Source of the DNA: Podarcis liolepis
Lineage: Eukaryota
Length of the DNA stretch: 64,000 bases
Direction: 5' to 3' (one strand)
Assembly (NCBI GenBank): GCA_965112155.1
Contig: OZ218099.1
The position numbers and the translations under genes are program-made. Below the pieces are notes generated by a model. That model saw nothing but the letters and a program-made list of their open reading frames with translations, made no database searches and was not told where the DNA came from. This document shows positions 14,621-48,105 of the stretch, in pieces (within the stretch, counting starts at the first letter, position 1; every line of letters begins with the position of its first letter).

Positions 14621-15513
14621 TCCGTGCTGGTCTCAGGAAGAAAGACCCAACCCCTAGCCCTCTTCTCTAATATTCATCATGAAACTTCCATATTCCATAA
14701 GAGGAGGCTCCAGCAACGATGGACGTCGTCAGAATTGAGCTATGAGCAAATATGCATTTGATAACGTCTGAAAAGGGCAAATGCAATCTAACTGCACAGA
14801 ATCAGTTCAAAGAATTAATGCAAGACGCAGCCGAAAAGCAGCATCTTTAAAATGTAAAGCAACAATTACAGGAGAGACAAACAATTCTGATTAAATAAAT
14901 TTGGACTGGGTTTAAAATGGTCCTAGGGGAAAATATTTGTCCAAAGATCTTCAAGCAAACCAATTAACAGACTACATCAAACAGTCCTGAGAGCGATGGA
15001 AATGGAAATTCACAATCAGGTTAACTCTCTGTACAACTGGGCCTCGGAACTTAATACAGCCTATAGTCAATATAGTATTGAGTCTACAGTGATTATCCTT
15101 GAGAAGGGTGGCTAGATACTATGGCAGTAGAACCAAGGGCTCACTCACACCGTTTTGAAGATCAAGTTCTGCAATTTGCATATGCAGCTAACAACGTTGC
15201 ATAGGAATTCTGCTTTCATGTTCCCAGAGACATAAGAAACACTATCTCTTGTTGCCTACCCACCCGCCCATTCCTACTGCACTCACAAAATCTCTTTAAA
15301 ATAAAGTTCATGCGACTAGGTTCCTGTTCACTGTGCAAGAACAACGGTTCACATCCCACAGAAACAAAAAGACAGCATATTCCAGTAATGCTAAATAAGC
15401 ATGAGGGCTGCACTTTCAGCAAAACACTAAACACTTTGAGAGGTCAAAACAAATACATAAAACAAAGCTGTTTTAAATCAAATCAAGTCATTGGTCCATC
15501 AAGATTAATACTA

Positions 15514-15747
15514 TAGTGGTACCTCGGTTTATGAACTTAATCTGTTCTGGAAGTCCGTTCTTAAACCAAATCCGTTCTTAAACCAAGGTGCACTTTCCCT
15601 AATGAGGCCTCCCACCGTCGGTGCCCTTCCACCGTTTGGCTTCCGTTCATAGACTGAGGTAAAGTTCTCAAACCGGGGCACTACTTCTGGTTTTGTGGAG
15701 TTTGTAAAATTCATAAACAGGACTGTTCTTAAACCAAGGTACCACTG
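15514..15747. mobile_element. Tc1/mariner (Tigger-like) MITE
   Basis: TIRs (C>T)AGTGGTACCTCGGTTTA / TAAACCAAGGTACCACTG with TA on both sides; same family as 26595-26836. Confidence 0.85.
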
Positions 15748-22261: not shown

Positions 22262-22464
22262 GGTGTGATTTCCAGTGAAGTCATCCTGTTAGCACAAGGG
22301 CTTCCACCTGCGCAATGTGACTTTGTCTTTGCCCCTACATCCCCAAATCTGTTTTTGAGACTGGGGCAGACTCAGGGTGGGCACAGGAAGAGGAGAGGGA
22401 GAGGAAGTCCCATTGCACAGGCAGAAGTCCCTGCGCTAATGGGATGACTCCATTGGATACAACC
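22262..22464. mobile_element. Degenerate palindromic MITE
   Basis: About 60-bp imperfect inverted arms (agtcatcc..ttagc.ca.gg.ctt..cctg.gcaatg.gactt). Confidence 0.55.
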
Positions 22465-22530
22465 CTAGGCATAGAGAAAGTCGAGCTTTCTGTATTGCTT
22501 TTATGGTTGTGGGTGGCTACTCTTTCCATT

Positions 22531-22946
22531 GGAAGTGAGAGCTGGACCATAAAAAAGGCTGATCGCCGAAGAATTGATGCTTTTGAATTATGGTGCTGGA
22601 GGAGACTCTTGAGAGTCCCATGAACTGCAAGAAGATCAAACGCATCCATTCTTAAGGAAATCAGGCCTGAGTGCTCACTGGAAGGACAGATCCTGAAGCT
22701 GAGGCTCCAATACTTTGGCCACCTCATGAGAAGAGAAGACTCCCTGGAAAAGACCCTGATGTTGAGGAAGATGGAGGGCACAAGGAGAAGGGGACGACAG
22801 AGGACAAGATGGTTGGATAGTGTTCTCAAAGCTACCAGCATGAGTTTGACCAAACTGTGGGAAGCAGTGGAAGACAGGAGTGCCTGGTGTGCTCTGGTCC
22901 ATGGGGTCATGAAGAGTCGGACACGACTAAACGACTGAACAACAAC
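22531..22946 (+). mobile_element. 5'-truncated BovB/RTE LINE 3' end
   Basis: Encodes RTE C-terminal motifs (SWTIKKADRRRIDAFELWCWRRLLRVP; LQYFGHLMRREDSLEKTLML; RGRQRTRWLD), ends in a (CAA)n tail, 12-bp TSD ACTCTTT(C/T)CATT at 22519-22530 and 22947-22958. Confidence 0.93.
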
Positions 22947-24099
22947 ACTCTTTTCATTAAACATTTTTTCCATCACTCTGCAGCCTCCCTGGTTGCTTGC
23001 ACTTCCTAATTTAGAAAAAAATAAGGTAAGAGTTACCCCATGATGTCTTGCCCTGAGCTATGTGAAGTAAAGGAAGACAGGGAGGCTGCCTACCAAACAC
23101 CAGAGATCTGGGCACTCACTTATTTTGGTTTTAAAGGAAGCATTCTCTGCATTCATTTCTTTTAAAGTAAGAAAAACTCTTCACTTTTTTTTAAAAAAAG
23201 AAAAGAAATAAAGCTGTGAGGTCCACAGCAAGACCCCTTCTCATGCTTACAGAAAAGCCCAGCTGATGACATGAGGATATGGGCACTGAGAAAGTCTGCA
23301 GAATTACTGGAATTATAAAATGAATTATAAAATGAAAGAAAAGGGAACCCACAAACACAGCTTGACCACCCTGAAAGGAAGGCAGCTGCAACAAAAACCA
23401 TGTACCTTACCTATGAGAATTTTAATACACAAACACAAAACTTCCCTTTGATAATTTTCAAATAAAATGTATTTTCCAAGTAAGTGATGGTTAATAGTGT
23501 GCAGGAGGAAATGCGGGGAAAATTTTCATCACAGTAGTAATATATTCAGCATCCACAATGATTTAAACAAAGCCAATGCAGAGACATACTATGGTGGAAT
23601 GTAACATAATTCCAGAATCTGTTCCCAAAGACGTATGTAGGAGATCTGACTATTCTTTAAAATAACAGTCCTGGTTTGCAATTTCAGTGCAGCCTTGATA
23701 TTATAGGTCATATGTCTGAAAGTTTATACAGTAGAGTCACAACTTACGCACATTCAGCTTTATGGGCTGGGCTGCTTAAACAAAATAACAATGGGGGTGG
23801 AAAGGGGGGGGGGCTTTGGCAATCCCACCTGCCATTGCAACCAACTTTGGCTTCATGTACTATCCCTGGAGCATCATCCCCACCTTATCTGCAGGTCTGG
23901 TGTAAAAGGTTTAAGGCAAATGAATCATTATTTCATAGCCTGTTCTAATACTTAGTATCTATTTCAGAGTCTATTCCAGAACTTAGTGAATACAGGAAAT
24001 GTTAATGCACAAGTCCAAAGAGAGGATAACTTTTGCTGCTGCTGGTAATCCTCCTCTGCCTCCTAGCCATAGCATTAGTTCATTAAAAAATGGTGTATT

Positions 24100-25760: not shown

Positions 25761-26594
25761 TATGGTGAAACCTGGTCCCCCACTGAACGAAGCAGGATTT
25801 CACCTGAACGTCACTGCTTTGTTATCTGGTGGAAATGCAAGATTTGAGCTATCTTCTCAACATGTGCCGGAGCAGCACTAACATCTTTATTTTACACTAA
25901 GGGAACTGTGGGCTCACTTATTTTGTGCTTCCTATTGCCACCTTGCCTGCTTTTGCAAATCTGATGCATGGCCCATTTCCATGTTCTTTCCTTGCCTGAC
26001 AACTTCCCCCCAGCTTACTTAGGGCTGATACACGTGTCACGGCCCCAACATAGAGAATGCTTCAAAAGAGCCTCTCGGTGACTATAATATTTGTAGTGTG
26101 CTCAGCAGCTGTGGATTGCTTTCTTAGCCACTAGAAAGCTTGCCACAAGTCATTGGGCCAGGCTGTAGGAGGTGGTCTGTGATATCTGTCGCCTCTGATA
26201 ACACAGGGCCAGTACCACCACTCCTTTGCAATGAGGGATGTTGGGGGATTCCAATGAAAACAGAAGCAGGAGTGGAAATTGTCAGTGTTCAGTTATTTGT
26301 CCCCTGTTCAAAATGGAAATCAATCCAGTGAGTTCTATCCATGTTTCCTGTTGGTGTTCCTTTCCATCCGCAAATGATACAGAATGGATTACCCCCCCCC
26401 CCCAATTTGAACTGCATTTTCTTTGCATGGAGTGGAATAATATAATGGAGTCGAAGAATATAGTGACAATGTAATTACCTAATTTACATAATTAATTGCA
26501 CAAACTACATCGGCTGCATAATTTGACCACAGCAGACAGCAAGGCAGAAGGCGAACTGCAAAGGATCAGAAACAGAGCTGCAAGTGACCAAATA

Positions 26595-26836
26595 CAGTGG
26601 TACCTCGGGTTAAGTACTTAATTCGTTCTGGAGGTCTGTACTTAACCTGAAACTGTTCTTAACCTGAAGCACCACTTTAGCTAATGGGGCCTCCTGCTGC
26701 TGCCATGCCATCGGAGCACAATATCTGTTCTCATCCTTAAGCAAAGTTCTTAACCTGAAGCACTATTTTTGGGTTAGCAGAGTCTGTAACCTGAAGCGTA
26801 TGTAACCTGAAGCGTATGTAACCCGAGGTACCACTG
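26595..26836. mobile_element. Tc1/mariner (Tigger-like) MITE, 242 bp
   Basis: Perfect 18-bp TIR CAGTGGTACCTCGGGTTA, TA TSD, internal repeated TAACCTGAAG motif. Confidence 0.92.
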
Positions 26837-27365
26837 TACAAGGTGAAATGGAAAACAATGTCTGCTTACATCTTGCAGCCATTTGACAATCCAGGGCGCT
26901 GCTTGCCTGGTAGCACTGGGGTCTACTATGGGGTCATGAGCTACAGATAATTATCCTTGCTGTGGTTACAGATGCCACATGGCAAGCTTTTTAGCGGTGA
27001 TAACCAGCGGTAGCAAGTGCCCATTGAAACTGACAGGGAGAAAGGTAGGAAGACCAACAGGAGGTGAAGCCGCAGCCAATGACTGGCAGAGCAGCTCTCT
27101 GGACTGGTTGTGAGAAAGAAGGCAGGAAGATGAAGGCTGCCTGAGGGCAGACTAAGGCTGCTGGGACAGTGCCCTCACCGGACAAGCCTCCACTGGCTAC
27201 AACAGTGTTCCTTAAAGAAACAGATTTATAGTCCTCAAAAAAACCGAGGTATGGAACCAAATATTATGATATGTGTTAACACACTTTAGAATGTATATAA
27301 TTTATTATATTTATGATTTGTGGCATTGAAGCACCTTGATCTACCTTGACATATTATTTGATATT

Positions 27366-27410
27366 ACCAGCTGAAGAAGGCATTACTCCGAAACAGGGCC
27401 CTGTCCTGGT
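27366..27410 (+). ncRNA. Type I hammerhead ribozyme motif, probably part of a Penelope-like element or retrozyme relic
   Basis: Stem I ACCAG/CTGGT; core CTGAAGA plus one extra A; stem II GG-CATTACT-CC; GAAA; palindromic stem III ACAGGGCCCTGT; GTC cleavage triplet at 27403-27405. Confidence 0.78.
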
Positions 27411-29442
27411 CACCACTACTGGGTCGTACATCTGATTCACACTCCGGATACTCCGTTTTGGCCCTATTTGATCCTTTATTCTTTATCTTGATTTTATATA
27501 TATGGACTCTTTTTGACTGCCATTGAGACTTGTATAAAACAATTGTTGTGCACTGGTATTTCATGTACCTTTGTACCATATCACTGCATATTTGAAACTA
27601 CATTATTTCTGTACTTAAACGTTGTATCCAAACTTACTATTACTTTAAAACCATCGTACTTACATGTTATATTTAAATTTACTACTAGCTACAAACTGTT
27701 ATTCTTAGCAGAATATACACGTTTTTCATCTCAACTCTTGAGTAGGAATTATTCCTTAAATTGAAAGTTGTGGCCAGAGTTCTTCGTATATTCTTTTCAG
27801 TACAACAGTGTTACTAGTTGTCTTAATTCCACCCAGATGTTTATATTCATCTATATCCTCTTCTAGTCAGTGCTTAATTTATATAAAAAGAGAGAGTTAA
27901 TCAGGCTCACGTTTTGCTAAGACATTGCAACCTCATCCCCCTAGTTACAGACGACTGAACTGTGGTTATCAGAGAATTCAGACCCAGGGGTGAGATAGTG
28001 GCTACAACACTGACACCAGCGAAGAGGTTGCAGCTCATTCTTTTCCGGAATTCCTCTGAAGTGTCGCATCATTTTACTGCTGAGGTCCCTCTAGTTCAGG
28101 AGAAGATAAGCCATGATCGCGCCTATACTATGTAGTAGTCTATAGCATGTCAGGAGATACGCACACATTTTACGACTGTCAAAACGCAGCCCATGGTGGT
28201 TTTACAACCTCGTTCACTGCCTTGGCTGTTTGAAGTCAACCTCAGCAATGAGGAAATGAAATTCTGCCTGAACAGATTACGAAGTGAGGATACCCACAGA
28301 AGAATTTCTGGGAGCTGTGAATAGAGCAGCCTAGAGGGATACAGTCAAAGGACAAACTGCATTCTAGCAAGTAATCACTGTAGGTAATAACTGCTTTGGT
28401 GCATAGTTGTCAAAATATTACTCAAAGGAGGTAATAGCACCAGGCTTAACAAAGCAACTCCTAACACCACTTCACAGTGCAGCCTTAATATAAAACTGTC
28501 AAATACAAGAGTGGTGGTGCAGCATAAGTGCATTTAAAAAGTTGTTTTATGCATTTTAACTTATCTCATTAATAAGATTTTATTGTAAGCTGGTATATAA
28601 ATTTGATAGATAGATTAATACAAGTGTGTGTGTGTGTACACACACTTGAAAAGAATCCACCCTAGAAAGCAAAAAGATCACTCTAGTTAAACTCATATAC
28701 TTATGGAATTTATTTACAACTGATATGATCTCTTTCACCCTTAAAGAAAAAAAAGGTGCTACAGTGACTTGTTAATATGGCACACAAAACTTCTGTGGCA
28801 GGACAGAAGAGAGTCAGGCCTAAGTCTCTACACATTTCACACCCAGCTCTGTTGGGGCTGGGTGGGTAGGGTGCTAAAGACATTATTTCATCTGGCAAAT
28901 TCTGCACCGTAACCACTTTCCTTCAAATGTCTTTTGGTCTGGGGTTTTTGGGGGGGTTTTGGGGGGGGGGAGTTTTCCTTATAAAGCTACAACCCTGGAG
29001 GTCAATATTGATTTTGGGTACATTGGTTTCTCTGTAAACATCTTAATGTATCTAAATAAGCTTTGAAATAATCAAGCAGAATTTCTTCCTCTCTCTCTAA
29101 AAAAGAAAAAGAAACTATTAACTGAGTAACCCATAATAACAATGGCAAGCCACTGATTACTGTGGTTTACCCTGCCTGTACCACACAATGCTGTATTACT
29201 TTTTAAATATTGAAACATTTAGCTAAGTAACGTATTTATTTATTTATGTATCAAGAACTTGGTGGATGTAAAAGCATGATTTTGATTACACTGAGATAAA
29301 CCACTGAGAGTAACTTTCCTTTTTACTGACTGACAAGTGGACTGTAAATGGGAAAAAGGCTGGATAACCCTAAAGCATACCATATTTCTGACACATGAAA
29401 TCCTTGGAACTAAACTGGGAGGGCAAAAAGAGTCCTTTAGGA

Positions 29443-33340: not shown

Positions 33341-33634
<294 letters not shown>

Positions 33635-36208: not shown

Positions 36209-36600
36209 ACATGCCCATTGTTGGCACCTGTCTGTCTTGGGAAACAATGGAGGAGTGTACCTTTTGGGGGTGAAGTAAAATTGTTTGAAGGTTACAGTTC
36301 TTGCTGTGGCCATAGAGACCAATATGGGAGAGACATGTTTTGTTGCAGCTGGGGCAGATGAAGGCGTCAGGTTGTGCTGCTGCAGAAGTAGGCACTGCGG
36401 TTGCCTACAAGGAATTCCCAAACGGTGGGGTTGATGATACTTGCCTTCATGTCATGTTAGCAGACATCTTTGGTCTGCCAATGGGCTGAATGCCTGAAAC
36501 CAGTTCCCCATAGTGCACATCCTTGGGGATCCTGCCATCTTCCATTCTGTGGACATGACCAAGCCAGCGCAGACAACGCTGAGACAGGAATGCAAACATA
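36209..36600 (-). mobile_element. RTE-clade LINE 3' fragments
   Basis: The minus strand encodes LRWLGHVHRMEDGRIPKDVHYGEL..GRPK (about 36590-36465) and a terminal Cys/His finger FICPSCNKTCLSHIGLYGHSKNC. Confidence 0.8.
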
Positions 36601-36724
36601 GTGGGGATGGGGGCTTGGGAGAGGGCATCTTTGTTTGAAAGAAGTGGTGTCCAACATCTTCCTGACGCAGCACATATGGAAGGTGTGAAGGCATTGCTCC
36701 TAATGGCTGCAAGTTGCTCACAAC

Positions 36725-37326
36725 TGTCATGGACTGGTTGGATGCAGAGGAGTGGGAGGGGGGCACCAGTTGGAGAACCAACAAGGGAACCCTCAGCAGA
36801 AGGCGGCTCAGAGCCAGGGGACTGGTGGTGGGATGATGATGATGATGATGATGAGTGGTCAGAGGGAAGCAGACTGGGATGAGGTGTCGGAAGCTGAAGA
36901 GGTAACAGGGTTTAGTGAGTGGGAAGAGTCTGTAGCATAGAGCAGTCCAGAATCTGAGGCAGAAGCAGAGTGTGGTCAAGAAGCAGAGTGGAGGTAGGCA
37001 ACTGAAAAAGCAGGGAATCTCCCGCTCCTGCTCCAGCTTCCCCTCTGCCCAGTCTCCCAGAACACATAGAGAAATGAAGAGGGTAGAGGAAAGAGAGACA
37101 AGGCGAAGGAGCCTTTGGCTGCTGGGGAAGGAACTGGGGGAGGAGCCTTAAAGAGCAATGGGAAGATGGGCATCTTCAGTCTTTGCAACTGCCTCAATGA
37201 GGCAAGACCTGCTGGGAAGAGTTGCTGTGATCACTAGGCCTGCACCGTTTTAGTTTGAATAAAGAGTTAACTTCACTGACACTGGATGTTTTATTGCTGA
37301 CCTGCCTCTGACTCCGGCTTCTGATA
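36725..37326 (+). mobile_element. Probable solo LTR (Gypsy-like), about 600 bp
   Basis: Starts TGTCA, ends TGATA (probably a mutated TGACA), purine-rich body, AATAAA at 37258-37263. No clear TSD. Confidence 0.55.
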
Positions 37327-39204: not shown

Positions 39205-39588
39205 GGGACGCAGGTGGTGCTGTGGCCTAAACCACTGAGCCTCTTGGGCTTGCTGATTGTAAGGTCAGCACTGAATCCCTATGATGGGGTAAGTTCGCAT
39301 TGCTCTGTCCCAGCTCCTGCTAACCTAGCAGTTTGAAAGCATGCCAGTACAAGTAGATAAATAGGTACCGCTGTGGCAGGAAGGTAAACGGCATTTCCAC
39401 GCACTCTGGCTTCCGTCACAGTGTTCCGTTGTACCAGAAGCGGTTTAGTCATGCTGGCCACACAACCCAGAAAGCTGTCTGTGGACAAACGCCAGCTCCC
39501 TCGGCCTGATGTGAGATGAGCGCTGCACCCCATAGTTGCCTTTGACTGGACTTAACCATCCAGGGGTCCTTTACCTTTTACCTTACTT
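39205..39588 (+). mobile_element. Full-length Sauria SINE
   Basis: Head GGGACGCAGGTGGTGCTGTGG, core GTAGATAAATAGGTACC, tail CCTTTACCTTTTACCTT; near-TSD TAAA(G/T)AGTCAAGC at 39189-39201 and 39589-39601. Confidence 0.88.
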
Positions 39589-46729: not shown

Positions 46730-47076
46730 GGGACGCGGGTGGCGCTGTGGTCTAAACCATTGAGCCTAGGGCTTGCCGATCAGAAGGTCAGTGGTTCGAA
46801 TCCCCGCAACGGGGTGAGCTCCCGTTGCTCGGTCCCAGTTCCTGCCAACCTAGCAGTTCGAAAGCATGTCGAAGTGCAAGTAGATAAATAGGTACCACTC
46901 CGGCAGTAAATGGCATTTTCGTGCGCTGCTCTGGTTCACCAGAAACGGCTTAGTCATGCTGGCCACATGTCTGTGGACAAACGCCAGCTCCCTCAGCCTA
47001 TAGAGCGAGATGAGCGCGCAACACCAGAGTTGTCCATGACTGGATCTAACAGTCAAGGGTACGTTTACCTTTACTT
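46730..47076 (+). mobile_element. Full-length Sauria SINE (younger copy)
   Basis: Head GGGACGCGGGTGGCGCTGTGG, B-box GGTTCGAATCCC, tail TTTACCTTTACTT; TSD TACCAATCCCAA(G/A)AGG at 46715-46730 and 47077-47092. Confidence 0.92.
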
Positions 47077-48105
47077 TACCAATCCCAAAAGGCAAAGCCT
47101 AAATAACGTTTGTCTTATCAAGCTAAACAGATTCCACTAGCAGTCATGTAGGCATTCTACAGTAGCTCAGTAATAGAGAAATCCAAATCCTGGCCACCAA
47201 GGGGTAGAGAGAGAATCAGTGGATCCACCAGTGGTGTCCAAAACCCTCTCTCCCAGCTGACCTGGGCAGAAGATGAGGGTGATTCTTTTACATTTTTTTG
47301 GGGGGGGGTGGACCAAATCCAGACTGGCACAACGTGGGGGATTAGTAGGGGATTGGATCTTGTGGATCCAAAGCCTCTGGCACACCACACTGCCCCATTG
47401 GGGGGGGGTTACTACTGGCTTCTATCGGTGGGAGAACTGGCAGTTGCAAATATCCACAAATTACGGTGAAACACAGCAGCAGAGGCTGCCTCACTTCTCC
47501 TCATCTCCACCAATAGAAGCCAGTAGGAAACAACATCTGCCTCCCATCCTAAATAATCCAATACCCCATCAACATGCAAAGGAATGGTGCTAGTGTTGAA
47601 GGCAGAATTGTACTGGGCCACTAAGAGGCAGTTTTGTCAAACAGCTAGTGTGTTCACATTGGCAGGTCACAGCTTGCACAGACTTGAGAGAATGAATAAA
47701 ATACTATTTTTTTTCAATTTGGGTTTTAGAACTAGAAAGAGGCAACATTTGTTTAGCTTGTTGATTTACGGAATTAAAATCAGTTGAGAACTAGCATCTG
47801 TATTCCTTCAGGTAATTTTACAGTCCAGAGTTTCCCATCCTGTGAGCTGTGACCTGCAAGTGGGGTGTAATTCCTGTGGAAGTGGCCATATTACTTATTA
47901 CAAATTAATTATCGCTTGTAATCCTTCACTGGTATGATGTTACAACTCTTACAGCTTTTTGTTTTGTTGGCACATCATATTGCTATGTTCACACTTGTAA
48001 CCAAATGTCAGAAAGGCTACTCTTGTATTCCCATAAACAAAACTGTGAATACTGTCGGTACCATAAATATTTCAATGAATTCCACATTAATATGGGTGCT
48101 AAGTA

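Follow-up and report, generated by a model that had tools for sequence, protein, structure and literature searches.

A hammerhead motif in an intron of EBF1

The DNA analyzed here, a stretch of 64 kb referred to below as the window, carries coding exons of EBF1 on its minus strand. The 27-kb intron between two of these exons (33592-33475 and 6265-6135) contains an insertion of 588 bp, and within the insertion lies a type I hammerhead motif with a complete core (27366-27410, + strand), antisense to the pre-mRNA. When both strands of the 64-kb window were scanned, this was the one locus at which the motif occurred. The features considered in this work are listed below.

33592-33475 (-): EBF1 coding exon upstream of the host intron (COE1 match, E 6.6e-21, PDB)
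27198-27212 (+): left copy of the target-site duplication, 15 bp (14/15 identical to 27801-27815)
27213-27800 (+): multi-copy insertion, 588 bp (from depth in contig runs and the empty site; putative sense strand, taken from the hammerhead)
27366-27370 (+): hammerhead stem I, 5' strand (sequence, descriptor)
27371-27378 (+): core CUGAAGA (C3-A9, 27371-27377) and an extra A (27378) between A9 and G10.1
27379-27389 (+): stem II (27379-27380 with 27388-27389, two G-C pairs) and the 7-nt loop II
27390-27393 (+): core GAAA (G12-A15.1; sequence)
27393-27404 (+): perfect 12-nt palindrome forming stem III (sequence, folding)
27405 (+): C17, with the predicted cut 3' of this base; GUC triplet at 27403-27405 (sequence, hammerhead numbering)
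27406-27410 (+): hammerhead stem I, 3' strand (sequence, descriptor)
27801-27815 (+): right copy of the target-site duplication, 15 bp (14/15 identical to 27198-27212)
6265-6135 (-): EBF1 coding exon downstream of the host intron (43/43 identical to COE1, 42/43 to COE3)

The host exons were identified by a splice-site scan, which yielded 261 candidates, and by comparison of the exon translations with PDB chains. The minus-strand exons match COE1 (EBF1) and the motif lies on the + strand between them, as the initial annotation, which had placed it in an EBF1 intron in antisense orientation, had claimed. Since the gene is read from the minus strand, EBF1 pre-mRNA could not be cut by this motif. 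The EBF1 exon carries two candidate splice donors, at 33451 and 33475 (-), located 24 nt apart and differing by eight additional codons in frame.

When the sequence was re-read, the letters and coordinates of the motif matched those of the initial annotation, and CUGAAGA, GAAA and GUC were all found at the places given there for a complete catalytic core. Three helices of 5 bp, 2 bp and 4 bp (12 bp as a dimer) are arranged around this core, and the ends of helix I are open. Stem I, described previously as perfect over 5 bp, is composed of five Watson-Crick pairs, and the next pair outward is a mismatch; stem II likewise has the claimed length of 2 bp, both of them G-C pairs. The 12-nt palindrome reported at stem III is perfect, and it may fold as 4 bp plus a loop or pair over 12 bp between two molecules. 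An extra base between A9 and G10.1, which the initial annotation had regarded as tolerated, is a listed trait of the minimal hammerheads of Penelope-like elements (PLEs) as described in PMC4209133. The 5' flank of the motif is U-rich, and the motif itself constitutes a G+C island (56%, compared to 27-33% in the background).

A search with Rfam hammerhead models had also been proposed. None of the models matched, either over 26900-28200 at E<=10, where the search returned two weak unrelated matches, or over the whole 64-kb window at the gathering thresholds. A second intact hammerhead core was not found in the 64-kb window. A type I descriptor matched one locus of the real window in both its strict and its loose form, while 300 dinucleotide-preserving shuffles of the window gave 1 match with the strict form and 18 with the loose one; the descriptor was composed after the motif had been seen, and this control alone is moderate evidence. 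The related copies of the insertion, described below, are a stronger argument for the motif than the shuffle control. Judged from its sequence, the hammerhead motif is real and was correctly read by the initial annotation.

A multi-copy insertion with an empty allele in a related organism

Four of 24 listed public runs were compared with the region 26950-28149 at 80% likeness, namely three contig sets, X1 (organism A), X2 (organism B) and X5 (organism D), and one RNA run, X23 (organism D). In 14 bins inside the insertion, depth relative to the single-copy right flank was 73-1,120x (X1), 25-313x (X2) and 36-97x (X5); owing to the method such depth is no copy number and was taken only to mean many copies; in addition, the bins depend on one another, and the three organisms are related. 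The AT-rich block, placed by the initial annotation at about 27260-27850, actually has its limits at 27213 and 27800. Its G+C content is 33%, and that of the flanks is 54% and 44%. No second copy of the insertion is present in the 64-kb window, and pattern scans of metagenome and viral contigs for relatives gave 0 matches. One 20-base pattern match (L001) was considered as a relative and rejected as a chance match, since it is not preceded by CUGANGA and shows no further similarity.

In organism D the orthologous site is empty. Contig 17 of X5, which is 3,574 nt long and has a flank depth of 11.4, links 27212 with 27835, and the whole insertion is missing. The nine letters at the join match 27816-27824 at 7/9, and a single copy of the 15-mer is kept, which identifies the 15-bp repeat as a target-site duplication and indicates that the locus is not conserved. 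In the whole window, direct repeats of this kind spaced by 300-999 nt amount to 54 overlapping pairs in 8 runs and are thus rare. The flanks of the organism D contig differ from the window at 9/573 letters, and the insertion is therefore recent or polymorphic. Ten flank bases (27825-27834) are missing in the empty allele of organism D and present in the contig of organism B, which represents a separate small deletion.

In X2, two contigs end at 27212 and one begins at 27801 with 15 letters unaligned. The resulting 30-letter overlap is what a 31-mer graph would give at an empty site, and the site of organism B is thus probably also empty. The single-copy contig 1 of X1 spans the left junction as far as 27253, and organism A therefore carries the insertion. 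Since both filled and empty alleles occur, presence or absence of the insertion can serve as a marker among related species. The initial annotation had suspected a mobile-element relic, and this is borne out by the multi-copy nature of the element, its empty orthologous site and its target-site duplication, with related copies that carry the motif region.

Several other repeats were observed in the window. Just left of the insertion lies a second, older multi-copy repeat (27030-27190), whose depth is raised in 3/3 contig runs; it is covered by ∼17 RNA reads and is also present at the empty site. The element at 26593-26838 is bounded by TA on either side and by terminal inverted repeats of 25 nt with 92% complementarity; it contains internal repeats of 16-17 nt, and a related piece of it is found at 15512-15612. 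It looks like a Tc1/mariner-type MITE, and it presumably resembles lacertid repeats. Two copies of a ∼380-nt repeat, 73.5% identical, are located at 39205-39586 and 46730-47079. The stretches 22338-23057 and 36450-36911 (-) are stop-free over 240 and 154 codons, respectively, and in our assumption resemble LINE (RTE-type) fragments; Pfam gave no match for their frames (0/8 in total, together with the frames of the insertion).

Related copies, folding and predicted activity of the motif

Among the differences from related copies that were listed (40/79 substitutions and 12/20 indels), all those within 27366-27410 fall in loop II; the remaining differences could include core changes. Loop II of the related copies is one base longer in all three contig runs, and some copies, as well as loose ends of X1, X2 and X5, have G in place of A27382. 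This pattern would fit CpG decay combined with a one-base loss in the window copy. With G at 27382, a third stem II pair could form past a C-U mismatch, closing a 4-nt loop. Helix II looks short in the family as well, because the related copies reach at most this third pair beyond the mismatch. No compensatory stem changes were present among the same listed differences (40/79 substitutions, 12/20 indels), and the copies are very alike.

In the folding of the monomer, the hammerhead fold has a predicted energy of -5.0 kcal/mol compared to a minimum of -10.2 kcal/mol, in which the 5' half of the palindrome is paired with the cleavage site. The probability of stem III in the monomer is 0.014, and longer contexts are no better. 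The palindrome yields -1.8 kcal/mol as a hairpin and -24.3 kcal/mol as a 12-bp duplex of two copies. When two copies were folded together, the palindromes paired at a probability of 0.94-1.0; however, the double-hammerhead state (-30.7 kcal/mol) remained 5.2 kcal/mol above the minimum (-35.9 kcal/mol), with probabilities of 0.14-0.24 for stem I and 0.02 for stem II. In the folding model, therefore, dimerization is predicted to remove the main misfold, yet the active fold is not dominant. Engineered hammerheads with one G-C pair in helix II are reported in PMC544870 to cleave well in vitro, so that a short helix II is compatible with activity.

RNA run X23 was derived from organism D, which lacks this insertion. 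In the 12% of the run that was read there were 30 reads, none of them 95% alike. Depth was 0-6 over the element, with 2-3 reads over the motif, no pile-up of ends, and no back-joint among the results listed. The first mate lies on the + strand in all 30 reads, a number too small to be given weight; if the usual stranded protocol was followed, these reads would be RNAs antisense to the motif, transcribed from other loci. The window copy is alone, slightly decayed and located on the strand that EBF1 does not transcribe, and for these reasons it is predicted to be probably inert.

Nature of the element

We infer that the insertion is likely to represent a terminal, non-coding part (pseudo-LTR) of a Penelope-like retrotransposon, inserted in antisense orientation in the EBF1 intron. 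The motif agrees with the consensus given for PLE minimal hammerheads in PMC4209133 (Fig. S3), with its U-rich flank and short helix I, CUGANGAH, G..C of helix II, GAAAN, palindrome and NUH. The traits it has in common with these motifs include the extra base after A9, the G10.1-C11.1 pair, palindromic positions 15-16 and loop 3, and the short helix I. The dispersed multi-copy insertion with a target-site duplication is a further PLE trait. Depth rises from left to right in 3/3 contig runs (Spearman 0.79, 0.64 and 0.60 in X1, X2 and X5, from interdependent bins and related organisms), as is expected from 5' truncation of a + strand retroelement, depth being a rough measure.

Other PLE traits were not found at this locus. 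Helix II is ∼6 bp in the PLE minimal hammerheads described in PMC4209133 (range 3-8), compared to 2 bp here and at most 3 bp with a mismatch in related copies. Pfam detected 0 families in 6/6 stop-free frames over the insertion, and thus no sign in this copy of the RT/GIY-YIG ORF that defines PLEs; truncation would explain this. The short frames of the insertion look non-coding, although its leftmost 50 nt, where the frames are shorter than 20 residues, might belong to the terminal part of an ORF. PLEs can have partial tandem or inverted pseudo-LTRs and an optional tail of 30-40 bp; at this locus neither such a partner was found nor a tail identified. The target-site duplication of 15 bp exceeds the 8-10 bp given for rotifer PLEs in PMC3846280.

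The following route of insertion would be consistent with these observations. A PLE RT/GIY-YIG protein would copy a + strand transcript by target-primed reverse transcription at staggered cuts 15 bp apart, leaving a 5'-truncated copy in which the + strand is presumably the sense strand of the element. In tandem transcripts of the parent element, two palindromes would join to form a stem III of 12 bp, and a cut after C17 is predicted for both molecules, either slow or assisted by the protein of the element. The lone copy in the window, with one base of loop II apparently lost and without a partner in cis, would be expected to misfold as a monomer.

Three further observations were made at the right end of the insertion. 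It terminates in a pyrimidine run followed by CAG (27789-27800), resembling a + strand splice acceptor; PLE terminal repeats can hold introns. One X1 contig, with a depth of 863, runs for 31 other letters past 27801, which could be a tail or an onward part of the element. Finally, 27695-27718 and 27786-27809 form an imperfect inverted repeat of 24 nt (79%); its right arm extends into the right copy of the target-site duplication, and it may be due to chance.

A tentative extension of the Penelope-like reading, possible but in our view doubtful, is that the copies belong to a young reptile family whose hammerhead lies at one extreme of the known range and acts as an obligate-dimer or protein-assisted ribozyme. 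In such a family helix II would consist family-wide of two pairs plus a mismatch, the 12-nt palindrome would offset this weakness, and nearly all of the stability would come from stem III. It might be a PLE derivative without an ORF, propagated as solo 3' pieces.

The alternative that survives best, though we regard it as considerably less probable, is that the insertion is an ORF-free non-autonomous element, either a non-LTR retrozyme monomer or a similar PLE derivative, cut from tandem transcripts by its hammerhead and reinserted by a PLE protein acting in trans. The lack of a coding frame in the Pfam analysis of six frames agrees with this, as does the length of the duplication, since those of animal retrozymes are described in PMC7229834 as exceeding 4 bp, and vertebrate families of 51-972 bp that occur as dispersed monomers derived from pseudo-LTRs are described in bioRxiv 10.64898/2026.07.22.740005. 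However, the locus holds a single unit and no tandem, the ends of the insertion do not form a repeated unit (8/30), and one contig among those listed that continues past 27801 shows 31 letters unlike the left end. Moreover, the motif belongs to the minimal hammerheads and lacks the helices of 6 bp (I) and 4 bp (II) given for canonical retrozyme hammerheads in PMC4209133 and PMC7229834, and 588 bp is longer than the RNAs of 170-400 nt described in the latter. The line between this alternative and a PLE piece is thin, because retrozymes are themselves reported to be derived from pseudo-LTRs and to leave dispersed monomers.

A hammerhead-bearing SINE-like element, moved by a LINE, appears improbable. 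Such elements exist in schistosomes (the alpha elements), and a 15-bp duplication suits LINE-type insertion; the stretches of the window that presumably resemble LINE fragments would also agree with this origin. Neither a Pol III head nor a LINE-type tail was found in the insertion, however: there is no tRNA gene or Rfam head and no A box on either strand, the lone B-box-like match (one mismatch) lies on the minus strand, and neither end has a poly(A) or repeat tail. A DNA transposon was rejected since there are no terminal inverted repeats (12/30), and a solo LTR because of the 15-bp duplication and the lack of TG..CA ends.

It is very improbable that the motif is a domesticated intronic ribozyme acting in EBF1 expression in the manner of the conserved amniote RECK, CTCL and DTNB hammerheads. 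Its core is complete and it is located in an intron of a developmental gene, but the orthologous site is empty in a relative whose flanks differ at only 9/573 letters, and loop II is shorter here than in the related copies. The RECK, CTCL and DTNB motifs, by comparison, are described in PMC6155905 as conserved across reptiles, birds and mammals. The domesticated ribozyme was therefore rejected on the empty orthologous site of organism D (probably also of B). A role in the control of EBF1 is unlikely, given that this copy is only one of many, is oriented antisense to the pre-mRNA and is missing in a close relative. The literature search found no paper joining a hammerhead ribozyme with EBF1, nor one on this locus.

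A chance arrangement of bases within an unrelated repeat is hardly credible: the absence of an Rfam match, the weight of 0.0001 of the hammerhead fold in the monomer ensemble and the 18 loose matches in 300 shuffled windows would suit it, but the strict descriptor gave only 1 match in 300, the motif has traits beyond the bare core (the G10.1-C11.1 pair, the extra base after A9, the perfect 12-nt palindrome, the U-rich 5' flank and a G+C of 56% in a 27-33% background), and the changes listed in related copies spare the core.

Comparison with known hammerhead systems

The closest resemblance of the insertion, read as a piece of a Penelope-like element, is to the PLE minimal hammerheads of Cervera and de la Pena (2014, PMC4209133). 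Like these, the motif is of type I, with CUGANGAH, the extra base and the G10.1-C11.1 pair; it also shares a 5-bp helix I, a palindromic helix III, a U-rich 5' flank and the fact that it is dispersed singly within a repeat family. A palindromic helix III centered on GGCC is found both here and in the Aedes aegypti family of the same paper. The PLE minimal hammerheads are described there as mostly single motifs, probably from truncated PLEs, turtle and snakes included, whose monomers did not cleave and whose dimers cleaved weakly. Small dimeric PLE hammerheads were also reported by Lunse et al., as reviewed in PMC6765202. The window motif differs from the set of Fig. S3 in PMC4209133, as read by eye, in having a helix II of 2 bp compared to 3-8 bp in 56/56 motifs, and a palindrome of 12 nt compared to at most 10 nt in the 56 motifs. 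In addition, no ORF is linked to this insertion.

The Poseidon element PAc of Anolis carolinensis (Frangieh et al. 2024, PMC11167929) is a squamate PLE with a hammerhead at its pseudo-LTR. According to that account, the hammerhead cleaved only when the protein of the element was added and was dispensable for insertion in vitro, and it thus serves as a model of possible activity in a motif that folds poorly. In PAc the hammerhead overlaps the start codon, with the ORF beginning from stem II, whereas the window motif has A9-A-G and no ATG at the corresponding position. The insertions of PAc are described as ending ∼111-118 nt into the ORF or further by the length of the tail, compared to 390 nt after the motif in the window. 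The insertion therefore probably belongs to a family other than PAc, the two being set apart by the published description of PAc and not by direct sequence comparison. PLEs are reported as not found in birds and mammals in the account of bioRxiv 10.64898/2026.07.22.740005. The putative lizard origin of the family is based on this account and on the presumed likeness of the element at 26593-26838 to lacertid repeats.

The insertion shares with the non-LTR retrozymes described in PMC7229834 and bioRxiv 10.64898/2026.07.22.740005 its non-coding, AT-rich sequence, type I hammerhead, long duplication and dispersed monomers. Cleavage of the vertebrate retrozymes is described as dimer-dependent. Retrozymes are characterized there by tandem units, mostly canonical hammerheads and circular RNAs, whereas here the unit is single, the motif is minimal and no tandem or circle was seen. 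With the amniote RECK, CTCL and DTNB hammerheads (PMC6155905) the motif has in common its type I topology and its location in a vertebrate intron. In contrast to these, which are described as conserved across amniote classes, it is lineage-limited, multi-copy, antisense and minimal.

The palindrome did not occur in the supplement of PMC8557442, and the literature search found no paper on this motif. Hammerheads in PLE terminal repeats have already been published for many animals, among them reptiles and including a lizard; the proportions of the present motif are slightly unusual. The family provides a test case for the question of whether weakly folding minimal PLE hammerheads cut as dimers or need the protein of their element, a question to which it is suited by having a helix II below, and a palindrome above, the lengths of the published set.
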